Shown: positions 1,963 to 30,199, counted from the whole stretch's first letter. The stretch is DNA of 53,316 nucleotides, filler included, from Dimargaris cristalligena (GCA_003614675.1; 3 parts of 3 records of this genome joined end to end with filler, not necessarily neighbours in it); one strand, 5' to 3'. Notes: generated by a model not told the origin, from the sequence alone. Program-made: numbers and translations.

Positions 1963-2400
1963 TCCCTTCCGTCAAACACTAGATTTCTAATCTGCACCCG
2001 GAAGGGCAATCATTTGAACAACTGGAGGAACTCAGGCATGCACACAATACTCCAGCTGACCAGGGAAGTGTGGCGGAGTGTCGTTTTTATGTCGATATTA
2101 ATAAGCATTTAAATAAAAGGTCGTGCATTTATAATATCCCGCAAAGCTTGGCTGATTGGGCGTCGGCAATGGGCCAATCTTGGATCAGCGGTATTCTCAT
2201 TTGAATGCTAGACCGTTGGAGTTTTATTCTGCTAAATTACTGGCCACAAATGCCATGGGACCAGACTGCCTGACCGTATATATAACCGATATTAGTGGCA
2301 GCCCATTTCTAACTCTACATCTCTCACCGCTTTCGCTTGCAACTCCAACTACCATTTCCATTGCTATATCACTACCACCACCATCAGTATCAGCATCACC

Positions 2401-3048
2401 ATGTCCACTTTCGAGGTCTACTACGCCAAGCTCCCCGGCCTGGCCGAAACCATTCGTAGCCTGCTTGACTACGCCGACGCCAAGTGGGAGTCAACCTATT
2501 TCGACGACTGGGCTGAAATCGTCAACTCAACTCCCTACGGCCGAGTGCCTGTTCTGCGGGAAACCACCGCCGACGGCCAACGTATTGAGCTCACCGAAAG
2601 CCGGGCCATCGAACGCTACCTCGCCCGTCGCTTTGGCCTGTACAGCGACGACCTCGTCGAAGCCGCCCGCATGGACGCCGTGGCCTCCCAGTTTGACGAT
2701 GTCATGCGCCCTTTACTCGCCGTTCCGCACGTTCCGGAAGCGGCCCGACCCTCTCTGATCGAACGATTCCGCGCGGAGGCCAATCGTCTGTTTACCCGTC
2801 ATGTTGGCCAGCTGGTCGCTAATGGGGATAATGGGCACTACTTTGGGAACCGGACCTCCTGGGCGGATATTATCGCGTATCTGTGCATTAAGCGCATGAA
2901 ACAGTCGACGGACTTCGATGTGGAGCTCCAGGCCCTCATGATGAAGAGTCACCAGAAACTTATTGATGCGTTGGAGCAGGACCCCAAGTTCAAGCGCTAC
3001 TTGGAACGCGCCGAACCTCGGGTGGCCAGTTACCCTCCCTTCCCCTAA
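2401..3048 (+). CDS. Glutathione S-transferase, Tyr-type/sigma-like, paralog 1 (215 aa, intronless)
   Basis: N-terminal YY..PGLAETIR, TPYGRVPVL (cis-Pro loop), ESRAIERYLA and SWADI N-capping box. TATA-like TATATATAA at 2277-2285. Confidence 0.95.
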   Translation: MSTFEVYYAKLPGLAETIRSLLDYADAKWESTYFDDWAEIVNSTPYGRVPVLRETTADGQRIELTESRAIERYLARRFGLYSDDLVEAARMDAVASQFDDVMRPLLAVPHVPEAARPSLIERFRAEANRLFTRHVGQLVANGDNGHYFGNRTSWADIIAYLCIKRMKQSTDFDVELQALMMKSHQKLIDALEQDPKFKRYLERAEPRVASYPPFP

Positions 3049-3115
3049 TCAAAATCCGTAGGGAAAAACCATGTTATCTCCAGTTTTACTCTTGAATCTA
3101 TGCATTTCATTTTAA

Positions 3116-3257
3116 ATATGGATGAAATTCAAATCAGCTGTATAAGGGTCTACATAATACGTGTATGGGCAAATATATGAGAATGGCTTTTAACCAGTAA
3201 TATTGGCCTTGTCCAATGGATTTTTCATTATACAGCCTGAATGAACTTCTCCCATAT
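3116..3257 (-). mobile_element. MITE family A copy (~143 bp, imperfect ~30-bp TIRs, TA flanks)
   Basis: ATATGGATGAAATTCAAATCAGCTGTATAA ... TTATACAGCCTGAATGAACTTCTCCCATAT; reverse complement of the copies at 30669 and 30811. Confidence 0.85.
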
Positions 3258-3549
3258 TGACCTTGTCTTATTGATGGAAATAAGCACGGCGGTAAATCCA
3301 TAATAAAGTTGGTGAAATTTACGATCATATTAGTTAAATAGTGGCTTGAGTATTGATGGACACTAGGTGGGACATGTTTAGTCTTTGGAAGATGTGCAAA
3401 AGCTGTGAATAATGGGGGAGGGTCGGACTGGCAAAATAGAGAGATATTCGTGTGAAATGATAGAGTTTACAGGTTATACAATACGTACCACCCCAACATC
3501 TTGTTTACATTTCACTTAAAATCGTATGTATCCGTATTGGATTTAGTCT

Positions 3550-3693
3550 ATATAGAAGATGTTCAACCAGGCTGTATAACGAAAAATCCTCTGGATGACG
3601 CTAATACTGCTGGTTGAAACTAAATCTCCCATATATTTTCACACACAATTACTATTTCTAACCTTATATAGTTGGGCGGGATTTCACTTATAT
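3550..3693 (+). mobile_element. MITE family A copy (diverged)
   Basis: gttcaaccaggctgtataacgaaaaatcc ... accttatatagttgggcgggatttcacttatat. Confidence 0.75.
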
Positions 3694-4265
3694 CTTCAAA
3701 TTGCGTGCCTTAGCATGACCTTATTCATATCTCTGTCCTAACACTGCTGATCTAGTTGGAGAAATAAAGTCGATCTAGTTCCTATACTTATCCATCAGTT
3801 AACTAGCCGGATGATAATGATATCCTTTAACTAATTAAATCGCTAATTGTACATCCCCAGATCTTATATAATACTATTCGTGGCCTTATATCGAGCGGTT
3901 TAATAGGTAGTCATCCACAGCATAGGCCAATGTAGCATCTACTAGGGTATTGGCCTGTGGTAACGTATTTGGGTTTCTAGCTGCATTTATGTTGGTCTTT
4001 CGCCCTAAAGTGTGGTCAGTTCAAGCACCTATGGGCTGGGAAAATCACAAAATCACAGTATTTCGCTATACCTGATCCGTCACTCCCCTTTTAATATACC
4101 TTATTCTTTTATTTCTAAGTTTGCCTCGGCTGTGGCCAAGTGTCCGGTTATCCAAGCAGTTAGGAGGTACAGTATACTATCAGCGGCTCGGCTCTTGCAA
4201 TAACACGCACTTTAATTCCTATATTTCGAACCCGGGCCTGCTTCTTCCTGTCATGGCGGTTCACA

Positions 4266-4299
4266 TGCTGACTAACTCTTTGCACTACCGGTTAGTCAA
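4266..4299 (+). promoter_or_regulatory. Inverted pair of bZIP elements upstream of GST2: TGCTGACTAAC...GTTAGTCAA
   Basis: TGACTAAC/GTTAGTCA dyad about 460 nt upstream of the ATG. Confidence 0.55.
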
Positions 4300-4725
4300 C
4301 CCCATCCGTCAAACAGCTGATTTATAATCTATACTAGTAAAAGCGGTCACTTGAACAACTGGGGGGCTCCAAGCACTAACACAATACTCCAACTGACACG
4401 GGAGGTGTGGGGGAGAGAAATGTATTAATTGATTCATTTCGGGATTAATAAGCATTTGCTTACGACGCTGCCGATTTATATAAACACATCATGTTTGTCT
4501 GGTTAGTTGTAGACCCAGGGACCAGTCTTGGTTCAACTCCATTCCCATTTAAATGTTAGACAGTCGGGGTTTAGTTCAGCCAGAACATTATCCCTAATTG
4601 TCTTGGGACCGGACTGCCCAGTAGTATATATACCCAATACCAGCAGTGATTAATTTTAAGTCCAACACCTCTCACTGCCTTGAATATTATCTCCGACTAT
4701 CATTTCCCGTTGCCATATCACCACC

Positions 4726-5373
4726 ATGTCCAAGTTTGAAGTATTCTATGCCAAAATCGCCGGCATGGCCGAAACCAGCCGTTGCATGCTCGACTACGCC
4801 GATGCCCAGTGGGAGTCGACCTATGTTGAGGATTGGGCCGCATTAGCCACCACGACGCCCTATGGCCGAGTGCCTGTTCTGCGGGAAACCACCGCCGACG
4901 GTCAACGTATCGAATTCTCGGAAACCCGGGCCATCGAACGCTATCTTGCCCGTCGTTTTGGTCTGTACAGCGACAACCTGGTTGAAGCCGCCCTCATGGA
5001 CGCCGTGGCTTCCCAGTTTGACGATGCCATGCGTCCTTTAACCACTGCTCCGTACGTACCGGAAGCGGACCGTCCCGCGCTGATTGACCAATTCCGCAAG
5101 GAGGCCACCCGTCTGTTTACCCGCCACACAGGTCAGTTGGTCGCCAACGGGGATAATGGCCACTACGTTGGTAGTCGTACTACCTGGGTGGATATTATTG
5201 CATACGTCAGTATCCAGCGCATGAAACAGTCGAGAGACTTTGATGCAGAACTACGGGCTCTGATGACGAAGAGTCATCAGAAACTCATCGATACCCTGGA
5301 ACAAGACCCCATCTTCAAGCGCTACTTGGAACGCGCCGAGCCCCGACTTGCTAGCTATTTCGCCCCCAATTAA
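4726..5373 (+). CDS. Glutathione S-transferase, paralog 2 (215 aa)
   Basis: Same GST motifs (TPYGRVPVL, ETRAIERYLA, TWVDI). Colinear with paralog 1, including the flanks. Confidence 0.95.
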   Translation: MSKFEVFYAKIAGMAETSRCMLDYADAQWESTYVEDWAALATTTPYGRVPVLRETTADGQRIEFSETRAIERYLARRFGLYSDNLVEAALMDAVASQFDDAMRPLTTAPYVPEADRPALIDQFRKEATRLFTRHTGQLVANGDNGHYVGSRTTWVDIIAYVSIQRMKQSRDFDAELRALMTKSHQKLIDTLEQDPIFKRYLERAEPRLASYFAPN

Positions 5374-5559
5374 AGTCTGTAAAGAAAATAACTATGCCCT
5401 TTGGTTATACCCCTGAAACTATGTATTTAATTTTATCTTCTGACATTTTCTTATTGGCGGAAATAAATATAGCGGCGAAGCCACAAATAGGGTAGCATAA
5501 GCGATGGCCACAGCAGTTGAACAGTACCTCGGGGATCAAATGTAATTATAAGTATTAGA

Positions 5560-6030
5560 TTAGTGAATGGTTATGAGCGGGCTTTTATTATCTGAAGATG
5601 GTGAGCGTGATATATATAAGCGAACTAAGGTGAATAGCGATAGGAGCGCTAGTGAACTAAGGAATTGAAATATGGCAGGTAGAGCACCCTTTACATGTAG
5701 TCAGTACTAGTTCTATCATATGCGGCGGTTCATTCCTGATGGGCCTACGGTACGCTCAGTTTTCGGATGGAGACCTTGAGAAGGACCTAGAAGGATTGCG
5801 AAGAGACTAAGTCCGAGCGTCAAGGATAACAATAGTAGATATCTGGCGCTGCGGCTGTCAATTATAGTGGATCGGGCTTATCTATCGTCCAAGGCCGGGG
5901 GTTCTGGATGGCCAGGGCCCTGATTATCTTGGTTTCCGGGTTCGCACTCCACAACCAAGGGCGGAGATGCATTGGTATCTACGGAGTTGCATCCATCTGC
6001 TGGGGTAGATGTAATAATAAGAACCTTATT
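5560..6030 (-). repeat. Repeat family B copy (LTR-like, ~0.4-0.5 kb; boundaries approximate)
   Basis: Reverse complement shares cagggccctggcca..., ccttagttcactagcgctcctatcgct and AATAAAA blocks with the copy at ~30200. Confidence 0.6.
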
Positions 6031-6064
6031 TAATCTATGGAAGAAGGGACGTAAAAACTATTTA

Positions 6065-6208
6065 ATACGCGTGAGGTTTTGTCTGGCTATATAACGAAAA
6101 ATCCCCTTGGTAAGACAATTCTGTCAGACTTAAAACATGACAACGCTCCATTACTTCTTTTACATTGCACTTAAGGTCTTATAGAATCGTATTGAATTTC
6201 AGAAATAT
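6065..6208 (+). mobile_element. MITE family A copy (highly diverged)
   Basis: ggctatataacgaaaaatcc ... cttatagaatcgtattgaatttcagaaatat; full unit length. Confidence 0.55.
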
Positions 6209-6623
6209 TAATTATTGTACATAATAGTAGTCCGACAGCGTTCTTGTATGAATGTACCCTAGGTTACTTTTTAGGGGTACGTAAGGCACTTACGCAACTC
6301 AACGTGTGACTACGAAAACCCATATGGCCAAATATTAATCAATGGTGATAAAAATAGGCCCTAAGTAGTATTGTGGCTTACGTTTAAACCGACGCCGCCA
6401 CCTACTTATTGTACACCACCGTCTTGCCAATCTGCCGCCCCCCACTGGGCTAGCGCAGTTCTCCAGAAACGTTGGTCGCTATCCAGGAACTTCCCACCTT
6501 GTACTACGTAGGTATGTCTTGGATTTGCAAAATGGCAGTGGGGTCTTCGGTATCATACTATTGATAGACAAGTTACCAAATCGGACTGAACCAGTTTGAT
6601 CATGGAGACACCTTGGTATCCCG

Positions 6624-6634
6624 GCTGACTAAGC
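6624..6634 (+). promoter_or_regulatory. bZIP/ARE-like element GCTGACTAAGC upstream of GST3
   Basis: 452 nt upstream of the ATG, in a promoter I could not otherwise align with GST1/2. Confidence 0.55.
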
Positions 6635-7075
6635 CATCCCGTGGTGTATTAACCCATTTGAGAGGGATTAAAACATATTTGTCAGGAATCCGGTAATATA
6701 CGGGCACTCTATGTAAATATGTCCAATCTAAAAACAAGGTAGGTGTGCCTAATTAACTAATGACATTAATAAGCACCCCAACAATTGCATCGCCCTGATT
6801 ATTTTTCTAGTTTTCGACCGTTTCATAGGAATACGATAAACGCCTGGGCTGGTTGTTTTTTTCAAATACCCTGACTTGGTACTGGCATATTCTGTCATAA
6901 ATGTTTACCACGGAATACCTGATAAGTTGGGCTGAAGAACCCATCGTATATAATCTGGCCACCAGCTATTTTATCCCCTGTTGGACACTCCGCACATTGT
7001 TTTGCCTCCCTATTCGCTCATTAGATACCTACCAACTTAATCAATCGGCCTTCCTTATAATTCTATTATCTCATT

Positions 7076-7726
7076 ATGTCTAAGTTTGAACTTCTCTACG
7101 CCAAATTCCCCGGCATCGCCGAAACCTCCCGTTGCCTACTCGACTATGCCAATGCCCAGTGGGAGCCCACTTACGTCGATGACCTGTCCCTGCTCGGCGA
7201 TACCACTCCCTACGGCAAAGTCCCGGTTCTTCGTGAGATAAACGCCGATGGTCAACATATTGAACTCTGCGAAAGTCGGGCCATCGAACGCTACCTCGCC
7301 CGTCGCTTCGGCCTGTACAGCGACGACCTGGTTGAAGCCGCCCGCATCGACGCCGTCGTATCCCAAGTGGACGATGTCATCCGTCCCTTGGCCTTCTACC
7401 GCCATTCCCCGAAGGAAGTACAGCCGATTTTGGTGGAACAATACCGCAAGGAAGCCCAGCGTTTTTTCGCCCGCCACGGTGCGCTATTGGTCGCCAATGG
7501 CGATAATGGGCATTACTTCGGCGACCGGACCACCTGGGCGGACATTGCCGCCTACCTGGTGATTAGCCGTATGAAACCGTTCAGCCAATTTGATGATGAG
7601 CTCCGTGGCCTCATGGTCCAGAGTCACCAAAAACTAGTGCATACTTTGGAGCAGGACCCTAATTTTCAACGGTATTTGGAACGCTTCGCTCAACGCCGTG
7701 CCTCTTACCAGATGGGACCTATTTAA
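7076..7726 (+). CDS. Glutathione S-transferase, paralog 3 (216 aa)
   Basis: TPYGKVPVL, ESRAIERYLA and TWADI motifs. Confidence 0.95.
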   Translation: MSKFELLYAKFPGIAETSRCLLDYANAQWEPTYVDDLSLLGDTTPYGKVPVLREINADGQHIELCESRAIERYLARRFGLYSDDLVEAARIDAVVSQVDDVIRPLAFYRHSPKEVQPILVEQYRKEAQRFFARHGALLVANGDNGHYFGDRTTWADIAAYLVISRMKPFSQFDDELRGLMVQSHQKLVHTLEQDPNFQRYLERFAQRRASYQMGPI

Positions 7727-8339
7727 CAATACCTGTTGTCTGGAGGGGGGGGCAGTGGATCCTAGACGAACGGATACCGTGTCTATTGTCCACTATGACA
7801 ATGGCATATGCTTAATTTGTTTATTAAATATCCCAATGAACCCAAATAAATCCACCATCCAACCAGAAATTCAAAAGGGTGTGGCCCGATCCTACTGGTT
7901 AACTGACATTGAACTGCCCTGCCCTTCCTTCTATTTACAGGCCCGCTTTCAGTGGTGGGAACGGTTGGTCCTGGCCCGATGCAGACAAATGAGTGGGTGC
8001 CTATAATGGCTTTGCATTACAACCATTCAATCATTTAATGACAACTTGTGATACAGTGGTGGGCTAGCTATTAAACGCACGTCGAAAAGCGGCAACATAA
8101 TTAAGAGTGTGATGGGGTAAACTAAGCCCTGGTTTTATGTAGGGTGGAAGCAACTCCCCGTTTAATATGAGGTCATCAAATAATAATGAAGCGAGCGATT
8201 TCAATTACGCAATCTCTTTACCGGTTAGGCATTGTTCCCTCTCTTCTCACAGATATACTTATTTCGATTTAAGTGTAAGTCTGTCGAGAATAATGCCGTT
8301 GGTCCAACATATCGCTACACGTCTGGAGGAAATGAGAAC

Positions 8340-8483
8340 ATACGGGAGAGGTTCAGCCAGGCTGTGTACGAAAAATCCGTTGTATAGAGCAAGTATTACT
8401 GGTTGGAAATGTGTCTCCCGCCCATGTTCCCATTCACATACCATTAAAAATCCTACACAGCTGTGCTGAAATTCACTCGAATA
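8340..8483 (+). mobile_element. MITE family A copy
   Basis: atacgggagaggttcagccaggctgtgtacgaaaaatcc ... cctacacagctgtgctgaaattcactcgaata. Confidence 0.75.
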
Positions 8484-8657
8484 CCGTCTCTGAAGCATAA
8501 ACGGTCATGGTATTTGAGACTGCAGCCAGACATTCACTAAGCAGCAAATAAGACCCCGCCGATGTAGTGCTATATGATTTGATAAATAAGGCGAAGCTAA
8601 ATGAAGAACTGTGAATATCACAGCTGACACCCCCCCCCACATCACATTGGTAGTTGA

Positions 8658-8669
8658 GCTGACTAAGCA
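8658..8669 (+). promoter_or_regulatory. bZIP/ARE-like element GCTGACTAAGCA upstream of GST4
   Basis: 551 nt upstream of the ATG. Close to the Maf recognition element TGCTGACTCAGCA. Confidence 0.55.
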
Positions 8670-9208
8670 TAGCCAAATGTAAATCTAGGTTTAGCATTGC
8701 GGACAATATCAATAGCCGGCCCGGATCTATTAACAATGGAACACCGGGGCTCAGCAGAACGGGTTTGCTGCAATGGGGCGTACGTGGCCGGCTGGGCCTG
8801 GGTGTGAAATGGAGGCTTATTTCTACACCGAAATTACTTGGCAATTTACATTGAAGTTGGGTGGCTCTTTGAGCATGAGGACTGTCATCAATGTCCCAGG
8901 AGACGAAGAGAAGATGGGGGAGACGATGGGCACTGCGGAGATACATCACACTGCGGTGAGAAATCCCATGACTGAATCGGGGCGGGAAAGTAACTTTGGG
9001 CGATTGCGGTAGGATAACTGGAGCCCAGCCATAGCTGGTAACTAATGGCGAAAAGCCGTGGAAGCAGAAATATAATGATAGTCGAGAGGGCCCAATATAT
9101 ATATGAGCCATTGGCCGCCATAATCCCTTCAAACACCAACTTGCACCGTTGTCTCCGACTACCACTACATCTACCATCCTTTCTTCTTCGCCTTTGCCAC
9201 CTTTCACC

Positions 9209-9865
9209 ATGTCCACCTTCGAGGTATACTACGCCCGCTTCACCGGCCTGGCCGAAACTACCCGCTGTCTGCTCGACTACGCTGATGCCAAATGGACCAA
9301 TACCTACTTGGAGGATTTTTCCGAGCTTGGTACTGCCACCCCGTACGGCAAAATGCCCGTGCTGCGGGAAACCACTGCTGATGGCCAACACATCGAACTC
9401 TGCGAAAGCCGGGCCATCGAACGCTACCTCGCCCGCCGATTCGGTTTGTACAGTGACGACCTGGTGGAAGCCGCTCGCATTGACGCCGTGGTCTCCCAGT
9501 TCGACGATGCCATACGGCCGCTAGCCACCGCCCGGTACGCCCCTGTAGCCTCCCGACCCGCGATGATGGAGTACTACCGCAAAGAGGCCACCCGTCTGTT
9601 CACACGCCATGGTGTCCAGTTGGCCGCCAATGGAAATAACGGCCATTACTTTGGAGACCGCACCACCTGGGCCGATATTGTCGCCTACCTGTGCATTCGG
9701 GCCATGAACAGCTACGAGTCGTTCGATGATGAGCTGCGGGCCCTCATGACAAAGAGTCACCAGAAACTCATCGACACCTTGGATGCGGACCCTAACTTCC
9801 AGCGCTACTTGGAGCGCGCCGGACCCCGGGTGGCCAGTTATCCCCCTCGCCCCTCTGTCGACTAA
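9209..9865 (+). CDS. Glutathione S-transferase, paralog 4 (218 aa; ATG at 9209, not the TTG at 9149)
   Basis: cacc-ATG-TCC start aligns with the other paralogs. TPYGKMPVL, ESRAIERYLA and TWADI motifs. Confidence 0.95.
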   Translation: MSTFEVYYARFTGLAETTRCLLDYADAKWTNTYLEDFSELGTATPYGKMPVLRETTADGQHIELCESRAIERYLARRFGLYSDDLVEAARIDAVVSQFDDAIRPLATARYAPVASRPAMMEYYRKEATRLFTRHGVQLAANGNNGHYFGDRTTWADIVAYLCIRAMNSYESFDDELRALMTKSHQKLIDTLDADPNFQRYLERAGPRVASYPPRPSVD

Positions 9866-10870: not shown

Positions 10871-11968
10871 CTAGAAATCGAACGAAAAAGACCTTCCATT
10901 GTTAGCGATAGCCCTGATAAGAGTATCTGGCGACCTGGCAGGCGATTCGCTGGTTATGTCATCCACACCATTAGGACTGCCCTGGCTTTTCTTGAGTTGA
11001 TGTGCACTTGTAGGAGGGAGAAGCGTGAAGCCGGTTTGCTGGGAGTTGCCCAAATTTCCGGTATGGGGTGGATATTGTCCCACCTGGTTCTGCCCCATAT
11101 GAATTGGCTTGTTGGAAGGCCTGTCTTGGGCCAGAGGCATGTAGGGTTCAGCCTTCCAATTGTCGAACTCTCCGATGCGCTGATAGTATCCCCCTGGTAC
11201 TTGAGTATTTGGGGGCCCATTAACCGGATTTGAAGGATTATTTGCCGCATCAGATTGGTGGTTGGTGACCTGGTTATGTGACCAACTAGAGGGCTGTTGG
11301 ACTCCATAATTATTGTCCTTCACAGGCGACGGGGCCTGAGGCCGTTGGGATCCCCATTTAGTATATGATGGATGATCATGAAATGCGGATTGAAGAAATG
11401 GTGCAGTGTGGCTGGAAATCCCATTGTGTGGTGCATTGCTGTCCCACTGCCATCCAGGCTGTTCGTCGACGCGACCGTTATTGGGCTCGGAGGGGCCAGA
11501 AGCTGCATACACTGGCTTTGGACCAATATTAGGTTTGGGCTGTTCGATACCCGCGTTTGCATGGCTGGCGCTCTTTGGGTTCAGTGCTAATGAGGCTAGA
11601 AAATTAAATACTTTCGAACCAGGCGCCCTTAAGTTCATGCTGGAATTTTCTGCGGTACGGGTCCGGCGTTTCTCCTCAAACCGACCATCTGTATAGGACA
11701 GTCTTCTTTGACGCCACAAGCAGTCATCGTAGTTGCAGCCCTGGTTTTTGAGGCTGCGGGTGTAGTTGAACTTGGAGCTACTAAAGTCGCGCAGAAAGTC
11801 GCTATAGTCGCTCTTACGGTCGCTCTTAAAGTCATTCCACCAAGAACTAGGGGACCGGTGGGCAAGGGCATGGGTACTGGCGGGGTGGCTACTTAGTTCT
11901 TGTTGGCCCTGTCCGGTTACGATTGCGGACACAAGAAGGGTCCCGTAAAGAATCGAGTGATAAAGCAT
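10871..11968 (-). CDS. Orphan secreted protein (365 aa): signal peptide, short propeptide ending LAHR, N/Q/P-rich disordered C-terminal half
   Basis: Hydrophobic N-terminus MLYHSILYGTLLVSAIVTG. Paralog at 14436-15452 preserves the codon-level alignment. Confidence 0.75.
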   Translation of the reverse strand: MLYHSILYGTLLVSAIVTGQGQQELSSHPASTHALAHRSPSSWWNDFKSDRKSDYSDFLRDFSSSKFNYTRSLKNQGCNYDDCLWRQRRLSYTDGRFEEKRRTRTAENSSMNLRAPGSKVFNFLASLALNPKSASHANAGIEQPKPNIGPKPVYAASGPSEPNNGRVDEQPGWQWDSNAPHNGISSHTAPFLQSAFHDHPSYTKWGSQRPQAPSPVKDNNYGVQQPSSWSHNQVTNHQSDAANNPSNPVNGPPNTQVPGGYYQRIGEFDNWKAEPYMPLAQDRPSNKPIHMGQNQVGQYPPHTGNLGNSQQTGFTLLPPTSAHQLKKSQGSPNGVDDITSESPARSPDTLIRAIANNGRSFSFDF

Positions 11969-14435: not shown

Positions 14436-15452
14436 CTAGTTGGAGTTCCCGGCAGACGCCTCAGGATTGAACGATAAGGTCCGTCCGTCGTTAATAATAG
14501 GTCTTATAAGGGTAGCTTGCTGATAAGTCCTGGACCCACTATTTTGAGCTATACTCATTATTGGGGTTACCCTGGCTGGCCCCGAGTTAATGCTGACCTG
14601 CAGGAGAGACAACTGTGGCGCTAGTTTGCTGGGAGTTATCAAAATATACGGCTGGTTGGTTAATATCTTGGTTATAAGACCCGTTAGGAGGCTGTGGGTT
14701 CCCATTATTATTGACATAAGTATGGGTCTGGTCCTGGAATTGTCGGCTTCCCCCGTTAGTATTCGGCTGGTAATCCTGGTGCATGGACTGAAGAGCTGGG
14801 CAGGTGGGTAGCCGGTATATTGGGATCGAGGCCCGTTAAGAGGCTGCTGTTGTACGTTATTATTGATATAAGTATGGGCCTGGTTCTGGTCCTAGAATTG
14901 TTGGTTTCCCCCGCTCGTGTTCAGCGGACGGCCCTGGTTTATGGGCTGAGGAGCTGAAGTAGGTTGGTTGGGAGTCGGCTTGCGTGGTTCATTGTCGTCC
15001 CATTGCCAGTTAGATGATATTTTGACACTGACTGGGTTGGGCTTAGGCTTATTAAGCTGTTCGGCTTGTCCATTTCCAGGGTGTGTGCTCTTCGGGGCTG
15101 GGGCTAATTTGGTCAGATAGGAAAAAGTTTTGGAACCTAGTTTGTTAAGAGATTTTCCGGAATTCCTAGTGGTGCCGGACAGGAGGAGCTTATTATACCG
15201 ATCGTCTGTATAGGTCAGTGCTTTTTGACGCCTCGAGCGGTCGTCGTAACCGATATCCTCATTGAGGAACTTTTGGGTGTAGTTGAACTTGGCGTCACGA
15301 AATCCGAGCTTAAAGTCGCTTGGCCAAGAAGTGAGGGAACGACGGGCAAGGGTCTGGGCACTGGTGGGGTGGTCACTTAGCTCTGCGTGGCCCTGGCCAG
15401 CCATGATTGCGGACACAACAAGGGCCCCATACAGAGTCGAGTGATACAACAT
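14436..15452 (-). pseudogene. Decayed or truncated paralog of the 365-aa secreted protein (intact ORF only 15452-14892, 186 aa)
   Basis: Homology continues past TAG (14892-14894), which aligns with CAG in an internal repeat (GGNQQF*DQ vs GGSRQFQDQ). TAA at 14587-14589 aligns with CAA in the paralog. Frameshifts follow, and the C-terminal TLIRPIINDGRTLSF matches TLIRAIANNGRSFSF. Confidence 0.8.
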
Positions 15453-25918: not shown

Positions 25919-27322
25919 ATGGCGTTATTTCCTAATCGTTTGGCCACCCTAGCGTTAGTCTGGCTCTTGGCTGCTGAAAAGGGTCTCGGCCATCCTACAT
26001 ACAACCCAAATACCATCGACTATGATTACATGGACCTGGGGCAACCATCCTATTCTTTCAATGACCCCACCGCCGATGACTATTATCGACCAAATGCACC
26101 GGAGGAATATTCAATGAGTGTACTCCCCCACTCCCAAGAAGGCGGGGTATGGGGTCCACGTGATTATTCCGGCATCACCAGTTTTGATGAAAAATCCGAC
26201 CTCTCGGATAACTCTTTTCTGAAGGGTATCGTGGACGGAATGCACTCAGATACCGAACATAATGGCCACTTCGAAGATTCACGTGTTCTGCCAGAGGCTG
26301 AGTACAGCTTCCCTATGAGGGAGTTCAGCGGTACCTATCGCACTACCAATAATATGTTTACGAACAGTGTGCCGGCAACAACTAGGCTCCCCAATATCGA
26401 CCAACCCAATCAGAACCACTGGGGATTTGAATCAATCACGCCGATCTATTGGCCAAACCCAACCCTAGATGCCAATTTAGGTGCGGGTGCAGAAACTTCC
26501 CATACGGGGCGGCAATCCTGGTATCCTGGCGAGGCCAGTCACTCAGCCACCGGTGCCAACCCACCCAGTGCAAATCCGCGGGGCCCAATGAATCCATCTC
26601 GGCAAGCGGGGAGTTTGTCGGGCCCTTGGCAACCGGGAACCTCCAGGAATAGGGAATTTGGCATTAGGCTTGCAATGCCTTTAAGAAACAATCCGACCGA
26701 CCCAGATGGAACTGCGAGAGCGCAGGCCAAGGCGGTCGAAGCCGCCAGATTGAAGAAGGCTCGTAACACTTGTAAGGAATACTCGAAGAACGCCTTCGGA
26801 GAGGCTGCTGAACGCCAAAGTGCATTGGCCAAGAGGTCCGCCCCTCAGTCCAATATGGACGAGGAGGAGGCCAGCTTACTATGTGCAGAATGGGGGGAAG
26901 CCGTCTGTACTAAAATTGAGAAGATTGTTAGCACTTTATTTGTACGAATGGAACAATACTCAGCCAAGGTAGTAAGCGAACCAGAAGCCTTCACTGACTC
27001 CATCGGACAACAGGTTAATCTTCTACTTTCCAAAAACAAAAGTAGGCTAATCAAACCAGCTCTAATCTTCGGACAGTCCTATGACCATGTTGCCAAAACC
27101 ATGATGGTCAAATTCTTTACTGGGCCCGGTGGTTATGACTGTGAGGGATTGGTTAAATCCAAGTTAACCTTAGGTGACACTACAATGTTCTCTTTCCTTT
27201 TATTACCAAACGGCCTAGACCTTCTCAGTAACCCCGAAACTCTAGGAAAGGTGCTGCAGGTGATTCAAACTAAAGTGACTAAACAGTGGGACCAATTTAA
27301 TGAGACAGCATTCCTTTCCTGA
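25919..27322 (+). CDS. Orphan secreted protein (467 aa; ATG at 25919): disordered N-terminal half, helical C-terminal domain
   Basis: gcc-ATG-GCG start, signal-like MALFPNRLATLALVWLLAAEKGLG|HP, 1.4-kb open frame. Confidence 0.78.
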   Translation: MALFPNRLATLALVWLLAAEKGLGHPTYNPNTIDYDYMDLGQPSYSFNDPTADDYYRPNAPEEYSMSVLPHSQEGGVWGPRDYSGITSFDEKSDLSDNSFLKGIVDGMHSDTEHNGHFEDSRVLPEAEYSFPMREFSGTYRTTNNMFTNSVPATTRLPNIDQPNQNHWGFESITPIYWPNPTLDANLGAGAETSHTGRQSWYPGEASHSATGANPPSANPRGPMNPSRQAGSLSGPWQPGTSRNREFGIRLAMPLRNNPTDPDGTARAQAKAVEAARLKKARNTCKEYSKNAFGEAAERQSALAKRSAPQSNMDEEEASLLCAEWGEAVCTKIEKIVSTLFVRMEQYSAKVVSEPEAFTDSIGQQVNLLLSKNKSRLIKPALIFGQSYDHVAKTMMVKFFTGPGGYDCEGLVKSKLTLGDTTMFSFLLLPNGLDLLSNPETLGKVLQVIQTKVTKQWDQFNETAFLS

Positions 27323-28855
27323 GCAAGCCCTGTTACATTCTATTTTTTTTTATTGTGTAGTTGTCAGATCAATATCGACATTCCTGGGGCTTTGATTATT
27401 CCACAACCTCGCACATGTTAAACTGTATTATTGATAGAAAGGCAGTCCCAGCCTCTATCAAGGCTCCTTATAAAGCTCGCTCATCATATACACACTAACT
27501 GTCCTGCTCTGTTTACAATCAAAAATGCGCTTAATGAAGTACATAACAGAATGGGTCCCGTTTGTAACACTAGGTCAAGGGGGGCATGGATTTACCAATG
27601 AGTTTTATGCTAAAGGGGGAAATTATGGACCCGATTTTTACAAATATTGTTAACTGGCCTATCCTAATTAAATAAGTTAAGGTCTTTCCATGCAACTCAC
27701 CCATATTGGGTCGTATTATGCTATATAATTTTTTCGTGAAAATGCCTAATACTATGGGGGCGACTTAGTCAATCCTCCTGGTCATTATCATCGGACTCTA
27801 TCTTGTACACACATGTGTAGATTCAAAGATTCATCTATTCCCATTGGAACATTCTGGATACCAACCGGACTCTTCCCCATTTATTAGTATTCCCTTTTGG
27901 ATGCCCCTATTTAATTGCCCCCTAAATTACAACTATCCTACCCAGGCTACGATCTGCTAGGCTTAACTTATTTTCCCCTTAGTTGATCTAATAAACCCCT
28001 TATACAGTATGCCCCAGATAGTAAGTGTGCACATACCACTATTTATTATAATCACCCTCTACCTATAGGGTAGTGAGTATCCATTTTGAGTAATCATGGT
28101 AGTATTTCCAATTGATACCTACCCACATGGACTCCTGGCAGGTTAAGAGCGGTTAACCCAGGTAACAATATTATAACCTAGTCAATATATTACTAAAAAT
28201 AATATAATTTCATTATCTAAATATGCCAATTTTTTAATATATATATATATATGCACACCATCACCAACTCCCCCTTCACTAGAACCCTGAATATTATAGA
28301 TAACCAGCTTATTGTATCTTGGTTTAGTGTTGGTCACCAACATGTCCCTTTCCGATGGTGGCCTGTCATCAAACGGTCCTGATGTTTAAATCCCAATAGA
28401 CTTAGCGCCGTCCCAACAAAGTGCACAAATCAGCTGAGCCACTTCAAGTGATATGTTTTGGACATCATGTATTAATGTCCAATTACTAATTGATATATAT
28501 ATATATATATGCGGATCCAGTAAGGATGCACTCGACTCCCAATATACTATGTATCAAAATAGAGTGGATACATTATAATTTTATTTGTTCGGGTTTAATA
28601 TATAGACGGGTTAACAGCGGTATGGTATCACACTCTATTGAATATACAAGGATGGGCTGTTAAATCAAGTTGAAAAAAATGGTTTTGAGCAATTATAAAG
28701 TTATACGGAGTGTTTTTTTAAAAAAATAAAATAAAAAAGTAAAAGTAAATAATATATCATATTGGTCATAACTACTCAAATAAAATATTCGCAAAGTATT
28801 ATAATAATGGCTTTTCGAATGACAGATAACCAAGCCAAGTTATACAGCGGTACAT

Positions 28856-29083
28856 TTACTTTCTGGAATCGGGCTTGGACGAACCGAAGATTTTCTTACC
28901 GACTCTATAAGTGCCATAAGCCGTAGCAGCAGCAAGTGCCGCACCCCCGATGGCCAATTTCGTAACTACGCCACGCTTGGCCAGTTTGGGTGTGGAGGTG
29001 GCGGGGTTGGCAGGGTTGGCGTGGACCATAGAGGCGGTGGCGATGGCGGCCAGGATGAGAGCGACTGCGGATAGGAACTGCAT
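28856..29083 (-). CDS. Small secreted prepropeptide (75 aa): signal peptide, propeptide, KR site, 38-aa cationic peptide
   Basis: MQFLSAVALILAAIATASMVHA | NPANPATSTPKLAKR | GVVTKLAIGGAALAAATAYGTYRVGKKIFGSSKPDSRK. GC-rich coding island in AT-rich flanks. Minus-strand TATAAATA at ~29306-29313 and a pyrimidine-rich 5' leader. Confidence 0.85.
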   Translation of the reverse strand: MQFLSAVALILAAIATASMVHANPANPATSTPKLAKRGVVTKLAIGGAALAAATAYGTYRVGKKIFGSSKPDSRK

Positions 29084-30199
29084 TATGGGTCGAGGTGGTT
29101 TGTTTAAAATAGAGGAGAGGTTGAGGGTGTGTAGCTTGCGGAGGGAAACGGCTGAAAGATACAGACTATGGACTTCTGGACTTAACTGGCCGGGTAGGGT
29201 AAATTGTTGAGAATAATCGGATCCGAGAGAGGAAGAGAGAGAACGACAGAGACTTAATGGTGAATGTGTGTTGGATTTTGAAAAAGATGAAAGCCGCCGG
29301 GTTGGTATTTATACATAACTGACGCTACCCCCAAGGCTCGGCCGGGAGACTCAAACTACGCGGGTAGACTCGCCTCAATTAACGGTCCCATCTAAACCCC
29401 CCTGCTTACCTCTCTGCTGTTCCAAATATACTATCTGCATTTTTAATATCCGACTAGCCCCTTTGATGTTGCTTGGGTTGGGCCACACATCTAAGTGACC
29501 CGAAGTGCAGTCTTGTGCCTTTTCCCCTGGCTATTTTTTTGCAAAGGTCTAATAAGAATAACAGCCCCGTTAATTAGGAGTACCATCTCGCCAACTGTGG
29601 CGTTTTCGTTAATCGAGACCATCCACATGCGGTTTGCGCCAATAGACTACCCACCGACCACCATTTCCCTTACATTGGGAATTCTCACTTGCTCTATAGA
29701 TAAATACATGAGTGGGAAACAAGACAGTGGGTCGCAGTAAAGGGGAGGTGTTCATCTAAAAATAATACGCAGTAGAATAGCCACCGTCTATCCCCACCCG
29801 CCTTGGCAGAGGTCCCAACTGATACCAGAATGTCGCCTCTGGCTAGGGTCCCACGTCGGACGGAATGTAACATAATCCTATAGACGGAGATATCCAGCGT
29901 GCCCAGTTAGTCTGGAGTAGCGGTATGGAGGGCAGCCGCCCAATTGAGGCTCGTTGGCAACTCAAAATTATTGGCCCTTCTCTCTCCATTATTCCTACGT
30001 GGTTTACGTTTCAAATGAAGAGCAAATGGAAGACAAGGAGGATGACCCCAAATGGGCTGCCGACCACCATAACGCAGTGCATACAATGCACCTCTAGATA
30101 TACGTGCGTTAGTATTAGAGCGGCCTGGCAACAGTGTAATATTAAAGAGGCCCGCCCTGTTGACCAACTACTTAGCTCTATTGGCTTAAAAGACTAGGT

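Follow-up and report, generated by a model that had tools for sequence, protein, structure and literature searches.

A candidate kexin-processed secreted prepropeptide with a conserved leader and a variable mature part in Dimargaris cristalligena

The stretch of Dimargaris cristalligena DNA analysed here (53,316 nucleotides, filler included, made of three parts of records of GCA_003614675.1 joined end to end and not necessarily neighbours in the genome; hereafter the window) carries on its minus strand, at 28856..29083, an open reading frame (ORF) for a 75-residue protein, P0001, with the layout of a secreted prepropeptide possessing a kexin-type cleavage site. This structural reading, in which P0001 is predicted from its sequence to be a secreted kexin-type precursor from a family in which the leader is conserved and the mature part varies, is well supported by the analyses. 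As an overall explanation, it is tentatively proposed, at somewhat short of an even chance, that the ORF is a real lineage-restricted gene of D. cristalligena encoding such a precursor, the released peptide of which attacks the membranes or envelopes of other cells. A membrane-active function as such (antimicrobial, cytolytic or permeabilising) is the more doubtful element and is perhaps half as probable as not. The original prediction for this locus, made from the sequence alone, thus stands in its observations and in its structural reading, while its functional part, a toxin or antimicrobial peptide, is a reasonable extrapolation against which some features speak.

The ORF runs from ATG to stop and comprises 75 codons, with the stop codon at 28856-28858. 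Its translation can be divided into three parts. Residues 1-22, MQFLSAVALILAAIATASMVHA (29018..29083, minus strand), form a predicted signal peptide, recognised by the score of its h-region, with the position of cleavage placed by the -3/-1 rule; V-H-A occupies positions -3 to -1 of this predicted site, which agrees with the usual rule for signal cleavage. Residues 23-37, NPANPATSTPKLAKR (28973..29017, minus strand), form a propeptide of 15 residues with three prolines, no D/E, two lysines and one arginine, ending in L-A-K-R, with K36-R37 encoded at 28973-28978 and cleavage expected behind them. The remaining residues, 38-75, GVVTKLAIGGAALAAATAYGTYRVGKKIFGSSKPDSRK (28859..28972, minus strand), constitute the predicted mature peptide, as judged from composition, hydropathy and AlphaFold2. 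It has 38 residues and is free of Cys, with seven K/R, one D/E, a net charge of +6 and a Gly plus Ala content of 34%. Just this arrangement had been described in the original prediction (a 22-residue signal, a 15-residue Pro-rich propeptide ending LAKR and a 38-residue peptide) and is borne out by the translation, and a recount agrees with the composition given for the mature part (seven K/R, one D and no Cys).

The length of the ORF is within chance, as 58 ATG-initiated ORFs of at least 75 aa are present in the window. Nevertheless, it is very likely a real gene, on account of three independent lines of evidence, these being its codon usage, the strongest signal-like N-terminus of the window and the existence of homologues. 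With the codon frequencies of seven confident window ORFs as reference, the frame of P0001 has a codon log-odds of +12.3 bits and is the sole positive one of the six, the other five being at -3.7 or below. Its GC content at third codon positions (GC3) is 0.64, compared to 0.61-0.74 for the confident genes of the window, and the ORF as a whole has 58% GC with flanks of 31% and 44%. The N-terminus possesses the top signal-like h-region (Kyte-Doolittle 2.98 over 10 aa) among the window's 166 ATG-ORFs with 45 aa or more, the filter for such regions being a crude heuristic passed by 13 of the 166, including three other plausible secreted proteins. The exact protein is also contained in NCBI nr, and every member of its family carries a hypothetical-protein annotation only. 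An ORF of 86 aa on the opposite strand, 28950-29210 (+), overlaps the peptide gene; its codon log-odds is negative, and its presence follows from the Ala-rich and GC-rich nature of the coding strand.

In 1.84 billion representatives, searched exhaustively with phmmer, exactly two relatives were identified at E <=0.001, namely P0002 (RKP37489.1, 73 aa, E 1.1e-15 to P0001) and P0003 (KAJ1986697.1, 70 aa, E 1.7e-5 to P0001). A word-indexed search of 5.8 billion clusters returned two such proteins among 23 candidates, P0001 itself and P0002. The protein P0004 (RKP38585.1), from another assembly, is P0003 with eight extra residues at its N-terminus. All of the homologues found are proteins of D. 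cristalligena. A profile built from the three sequences detected nothing beyond the three known members among near-length proteins (413 candidates), and with longer proteins there was no match at E <=10 in 7998 scored candidates. Within the window, tblastn of P0001 and P0002 found no second copy, the best non-self match being to the leader of ORF 14892-15452 (E 0.4).

The three proteins are most alike in their leaders. Over signal and propeptide together, 31 of 37 residues are identical between P0001 and P0002, 25 of 37 between P0001 and P0003, and 21 of 37 between P0002 and P0003; the corresponding identities in the mature parts are 19 of 45, 11 of 39 and 5 of 46 alignment columns. Within the signal, pairwise identities across the three members are 13-19 of 22. 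The mature parts are separated by a 7-residue indel and others, whereas L34, K36 and R37 are invariant in all three proteins, so that the site can be written as L[AT]KR. The search for a family of which the leader is conserved and the mature part variable had been suggested as a check of the original prediction, and such a family has been revealed by the protein searches and the three-member alignment. As a neighbouring gene differs by just 3% between assemblies, P0001 and P0002 would not be strain variants but paralogues, or else haplotypes that have diverged strongly. It has been suggested that the genome of D. cristalligena RSA 468 is non-haploid, and the Dimargaritales are described as mycoparasites (PMC9866270).

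Residues preferred by Kex2 are Leu at P4, Lys at P2 and Arg at P1 (PMC8528282), and the L-A-K-R of P0001 matches all three, in keeping with the proposal that its KR is a kexin site. Proteins termed K2PP are defined as secreted proteins with a disordered pro-domain in their first half ending in KR/RR or LxxR, and approximately 30% of 120 known fungal effectors have a putative Kex2 pro-domain (Outram et al., PLoS Pathog 2021, PMC8528282). With regard to this definition, P0001 has a signal-like N-terminus by h-region score and V-H-A, both of them heuristics, and its propeptide lies at residues 23-37 of 75 and ends in L-A-K-R. With the Candida albicans protein Ece1p, sequential processing by Kex2 and then Kex1 frees the fungal peptide toxin candidalysin (PMC5784256). 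As P0001 ends in R-K and P0003 in K-K, trimming of these termini by a Kex1-type carboxypeptidase is conceivable. By its sequence, the ORF can credibly be taken as the gene of a precursor that bears a signal and an optimal kexin site, and its product is probably secreted and cut at KR.

When modelled alone from its single sequence with AlphaFold2, the mature peptide of P0001 is predicted to form one helix spanning residues 2-29 (mean pLDDT 75.6), with pLDDT values of 86 and 84 in the first two ten-residue blocks and an unstructured tail at residues 30-38 (GSSKPDSRK). On a 100-degree helical wheel, K5, R23, K26 and K27 of this helix fall inside a 100 degree arc (resultant 0.82), a modest clustering given that 755 of 20000 random placements of the basic residues reach this value. 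The net charge of the mature part of P0003 is +8. A prediction of a four-copy complex of the mature peptide, made without controls, scored 0.02 compared to a mark of 0.32 and weighs neither way. As to the hydrophobic core followed by a basic tail that had been described for this peptide, the basic tail is present, but the core, rich in Ala and Gly, has only weak hydrophobicity, with 1.33 as the highest Kyte-Doolittle mean over 19 aa. Going by these models and scales, mature P0001 is a cationic, helical peptide, though no textbook amphipathic antimicrobial peptide and far less hydrophobic than would be expected of the core of a cytolysin.

D. cristalligena is a haustorial mycoparasite of other moulds, and a route from precursor to active peptide can be proposed for it. 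The 22 N-terminal residues would lead the nascent chain into the endoplasmic reticulum and then be removed, after which a late-Golgi kexin (Kex2-type) would cut behind L-A-K-R37 and so free the 38-residue C-terminal peptide. A Kex1-type carboxypeptidase may then remove the terminal R-K. The freed peptide would be cationic (+6, or +4 once trimmed) and would consist of a helix of ~28 residues with a short flexible basic tail. Once secreted, it would target the membranes or envelopes of the fungal host or of competing microbes.

A number of observations weigh against the last of these steps, or against the evidence on which it leans. A haustorial biotroph has no obvious need for host lysis. In addition to the weak hydrophobicity of the Ala/Gly-rich core, the hydrophobic moment of the whole peptide of P0001 is just 0.26, a value of 0.61 being reached in the tail segment RVGKKIFGSSK (11 aa) only. 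With P0003, the basic residues of which have a resultant of 0.17, clustering is absent, as 14545 of 20000 random placements attain that value, and P0002, having just two basic residues, is uninformative in this respect. The mature part of P0002 has a net charge of +2 and no basic tail, and its Kyte-Doolittle values of 1.67-1.80 are borderline for a membrane span. The AlphaFold2 model of full-length P0001 from the three-sequence alignment is poor (pLDDT 59, helices at 2-22 and 32-66). Searches for known relatives were also unproductive: Pfam at E <=10 gave no family for P0001, PDB sequences at E <=10 gave no match to its mature part, and in the ESM Atlas the nearest cluster for the whole protein was moricin-like at 0.79, which is sub-threshold and within a range common for shuffles (one-third of them attain 0.8), with no usable match for the mature part alone. 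The propeptide of P0001 is without acidic residues and in this it is unlike the charge-neutralising propieces of animal antimicrobial-peptide precursors (PMC3742671).

The basic tail itself is subject to a further caveat that counts on the same side. A 5′ splice-site-like hexamer, GTAAGA, is present at 28894..28899 (minus strand), inside codons 62-63 and in phase 1, and its position is the point at which the annotated C-terminus of P0002 (...YKV/VVVGN, the slash marking the point) diverges from P0001. The tail of P0001 may accordingly be spliced out. Either the P0002 model has been spliced at the equivalent of this point or the hexamer is irrelevant. The unspliced reading of P0001 is favoured here because this basic tail recurs in P0003 and P0004, which were annotated independently of one another.

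Of the other ways in which the locus may be explained, one is a peptide that is released by kexin but is not lytic, such as a self-assembling or surface-active wall peptide resembling the repellents of Ustilago, a signalling peptide, or a host-directed effector with its basic tail serving in binding or uptake. This is considered rather unlikely, even though it shares all of the evidence for secretion and processing with the preferred explanation. Its attraction lies in the Ala/Gly/Tyr-rich cores of P0001 and above all P0002 (...AAAGTAAAAATAYGTY...), which are weakly hydrophobic rather than amphipathic, and in the fact that kexin-processed structural and signalling peptides are documented in fungi (PMC3133707, PMC6339444), the frequency of putative Kex2 pro-domains among the 120 effectors mentioned above (PMC8528282) pointing the same way. 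Kexin cuts Ustilago Rep1 into 11 repellents, which assemble as amyloid fibrils on the aerial hyphae (PMC3133707), and other kexin-processed fungal peptides include the KEP-derived signalling peptides and alpha pheromone (PMC6339444). Like the KEPs and Rep1, P0001 would be a secreted fungal precursor cut by kexin into a small extracellular product, its own cleavage being predicted; however, those proteins hold multiple KR-flanked repeat cores (PMC6339444, PMC3133707), whereas P0001 has one pro-site and one peptide without repeats, and no longer relatives emerged from the 7998 longer candidates at E <=10. The high charge of the mature parts (+6 and +8) and their fast divergence are also more typical of peptides of defence or attack than of structural peptides. 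An improbable alternative is that P0001 serves the fungus itself as a tiny type I membrane protein that loses its signal, is halted in transfer by the Ala/Gly-rich stretch and leaves its basic tail in the cytosol, with KR remaining uncut or its cleavage merely trimming a luminal stub. The uncharged stretch of P0001, LAIGGAALAAATAYGTY (17 aa), has K on its N side and R plus KK on its C side, which suits a positive-inside arrangement, and the continuous helix of ~28 residues predicted by AlphaFold2 is of a length that spans a bilayer. In P0002 the hydrophobic stretch is longer, with Kyte-Doolittle means of 1.67 over 19 aa and 1.80 over 17 aa. Membrane spans are customarily expected to reach a Kyte-Doolittle mean of at least 1.6 over ~19 aa. 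Judged on such simple scales (Kyte-Doolittle, Eisenberg and Hessa), the best 19-aa segment after the signal in P0001 stays below this threshold at 1.33 and has a Hessa-scale sum of +5.1 kcal/mol, compared to a sum of +2.4 kcal/mol for P0002. With P0003 the mean is 0.67 and the sum +9.2 kcal/mol, and K and R interrupt the stretch that matches the uncharged one of P0001, yet its leader and KR site are kept. The signal h-regions of the family reach 2.2-2.5 over 15 aa. An anchor is thus unlikely to be the function of the family, because the leader and KR are kept and a membrane-spanning segment is not; an anchor with its tail should be conserved at least as well as the signal, and the opposite gradient is seen. 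An invariant optimal kexin site five residues ahead of the stretch would likewise be hard to explain. The concern raised with the original prediction, that the hydrophobic stretch is simply a membrane anchor, is weakened accordingly by the lack of a span-capable hydrophobic stretch in P0003, although P0002, going by its sequence, may still carry one.

It is very improbable that there is no functional gene at all, and that a chance or decaying ORF has been caught by annotation, the members of the family being duplicates of a short segment. As already stated, the window has many ORFs of this size, the 86-aa antisense ORF overlaps the locus, the annotations are of hypothetical proteins only, and no homologues were found beyond one species in the 1.84 billion representatives and the profile searches. 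Against this, the frame of the ORF alone is positive in codon log-odds and gene-like in GC3, with the antisense frames at -3.7 or below. The three diverged copies have all retained an open frame, a start, a signal and L-x-K-R, the rest varying by substitutions and in-frame indels, and two independent annotations give the same protein for P0003 and P0004 save for the choice of start.

Taking the preferred explanation, a kexin-released and possibly membrane-active peptide, P0001 is an orphan of a known class, that of the kexin-processed small secreted fungal peptides. It shares with the K2PP proteins the order of a signal, a short disorder-prone pro-domain ending in KR with Leu at P4, and a mature part (Outram et al., PLoS Pathog 2021, PMC8528282). 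The K2PP effectors described in that paper, however, are from plant pathogens of the Dikarya and have folded, mostly Cys-containing mature parts, while the mature part of P0001 is a 38-aa Cys-free linear peptide of a zoopagomycete mycoparasite.

The original prediction had compared the peptide with candidalysin and melittin. In candidalysin a hydrophobic N-terminal part is followed by a basic C-terminal end, and the analogy in layout holds, but not membership, as the searches gave no sequence relation to known families of peptide toxins or antimicrobial peptides; similarity to Ece1p or candidalysin was not found in any protein search. Ece1p is a polyprotein of 271 aa with several KR-delimited peptides, whereas P0001 is 75 aa long and contains a single KR in the part that follows the signal, and its Ala/Gly-rich core is far less hydrophobic than that of candidalysin. 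What the two have in common is a Cys-free helical peptide, Kex2 cleavage at KR and possible Kex1 trimming (PMC5784256), the release of the P0001 peptide being predicted.

In overall design the family of P0001 has the pattern of animal linear antimicrobial-peptide precursor families, namely a conserved leader and a diversifying mature peptide. Precursors of the dermaseptin superfamily have a 22-aa signal, a propiece ending in Lys-Arg and a single C-terminal peptide in a total of 66-67 aa, and their conserved preproregion has been used to clone divergent peptides (PMC3742671). The P0001 family is similar to these in size, order, conserved prepro region, variable mature part and predicted cationic helical product. 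It differs from both the frog dermaseptins and the insect moricins in coming from another kingdom, without homology, in having no C-terminal Gly amidation signal and in its weak amphipathicity. The Moricin profile (PF06451) did not match P0001 in the Pfam search at E <=10. A Pfam search with one paralogue gave one irrelevant DUF (E 1.4), and NCBIfam returned only sub-cutoff noise, the Ala/Gly stretch matching a Tat-signal domain with 15 bits where the cutoff is 16.7.

It is worth mentioning a more far-reaching possibility, which is regarded as unlikely but would be of some consequence, that P0001 and its relatives represent the first family of gene-encoded linear peptides, Cys-free, cationic and active on membranes, to come from an early-diverging (zoopagomycete) fungus, dermaseptin-like in family organisation, released by kexin and directed against the fungal host or competitors. 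If this were true, it would be a convergent reinvention, within the Fungi, of the precursor design of animal host-defence peptides. To our knowledge, fungi very rarely have ribosomal peptide toxins that are unmodified and Cys-free, and next to nothing is known about the molecular weapons of Dimargaris and other haustorial mycoparasites. The available portions of the literature on Dimargaris secreted proteins and effectors and on antimicrobial peptides of Zoopagomycota contained no description of such peptides. As a short, synthesisable family with a leader that eases the finding of relatives, it bears on the role of membrane-active peptides in the parasitism of fungi on fungi, and also on whether kexin-dependent release of peptides for attack predates the Dikarya. 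If the peptides are inactive, it would be merely another orphan family of small secreted proteins.

A TATA box and a leader of its own had been noted for the ORF. A TATAAA element, identified by consensus match, lies at 29313..29308 on the minus strand (29308..29313), 225 nt upstream of the ATG, and is followed by a putative 5′ leader of 224 nt (29084..29307, minus strand) that is C/T-rich, G-poor (23 G in 224) and without an ATG. This lack of an upstream ATG gives weak support to the leader reading, being mildly unusual, as it is also found with 17.5% of composition-matched shuffles and with 56 of 2124 window tiles of the same size. The context of the start codon is CCCATAATG, with A at -3. 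Downstream of the stop codon is an AT-rich flank, presumed from its composition to be the 3′ untranslated region and terminator (28690..28855, minus strand), the GC content being ~31% over 28400-28855. A (TA)n microsatellite of ~9 units is situated at 28494-28512 inside the AT-rich 3′ flank of the gene.

Matches to GlpF aquaporins, the only ones that the family profile gave in the PDB (E 1.1-1.7), raised the possibility that the locus is a remnant of an aquaporin gene. The alignment covers 28910-29050 (minus strand), residues 12-59, and corresponds to the region of the first NPA motif and a helix (H-x-N-P-A…K-R…G-A-x-x-A-A…Y-G-x-Y). It was rejected as chance, because neither the 150-aa stop-to-stop frame nor any of the 51 frames with 30 aa or more between 27800 and 30200 contains MIP-like sequence.

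The nearest large ORF is that at 25919-27322 (+), which lies ~1.5 kb off the 3′ end of the P0001 gene and encodes 467 aa with a signal-like N-terminus (MALFPNRLATLALVWLLAAEKGLG...). It had no Pfam match above cutoff, PDB sequences included no relative, and the protein collection did not contain its exact sequence. A neighbouring pair of secreted proteins with similar pro-sites had also been reported. Such a pair does exist, at 10871-11968 (-) and 14892-15452 (-), with the sites ...ALAHR/S and ...TLARR/S (the slash marking the presumed cut), but it lies 13-18 kb off and is not adjacent, and a generic LxxR is all that its pro-sites have in common with that of P0001, tblastn giving nothing beyond the E 0.4 match.

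The two members of this pair, 10871-11968 (-) and 14436-15452 (-), are paralogous orphans with signal-like N-termini (MLYHS...), 42% identical over 184 aa (E 7e-39) and without a Pfam match. Their conserved C-terminal motif (TLIRPIINDGRTLSF in one and TLIRAIANNGRSFSF in the other) sits in another frame in the second copy, in ORF 14436-14891, and so this copy (14436-15452) would be interrupted by an intron or a frameshift. The protein of ORF 10871-11968 is 97% identical (353/365) to a D. cristalligena protein, KAJ1986175.1 (P0007). All 12 differences are within residues 13-157 of 365 and include two Cys positions that are replaced in KAJ1986175.1; the C-terminal 200 residues are identical.

Elsewhere in the window, a tandem of four GST-like ORFs with GST_N and GST_C Pfam matches occupies 2296-9865 (+), these being 2296-3048, 4684-5373, 7061-7726 and 9107-9865. 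Other genes are for a BP28CT/HEAT protein at the left end, an AATF/Che-1 homologue at 39.4-41.2 kb and a prolyl oligopeptidase at 44.2-46.4 kb. The region of ~10-35 kb consists of lower-GC DNA in which all ORFs are without Pfam matches, with conserved housekeeping genes on either side, and within it the segment 16001-24000 has a low GC content of 0.38-0.41, compared to 0.45-0.55 elsewhere, and almost no long ORF.

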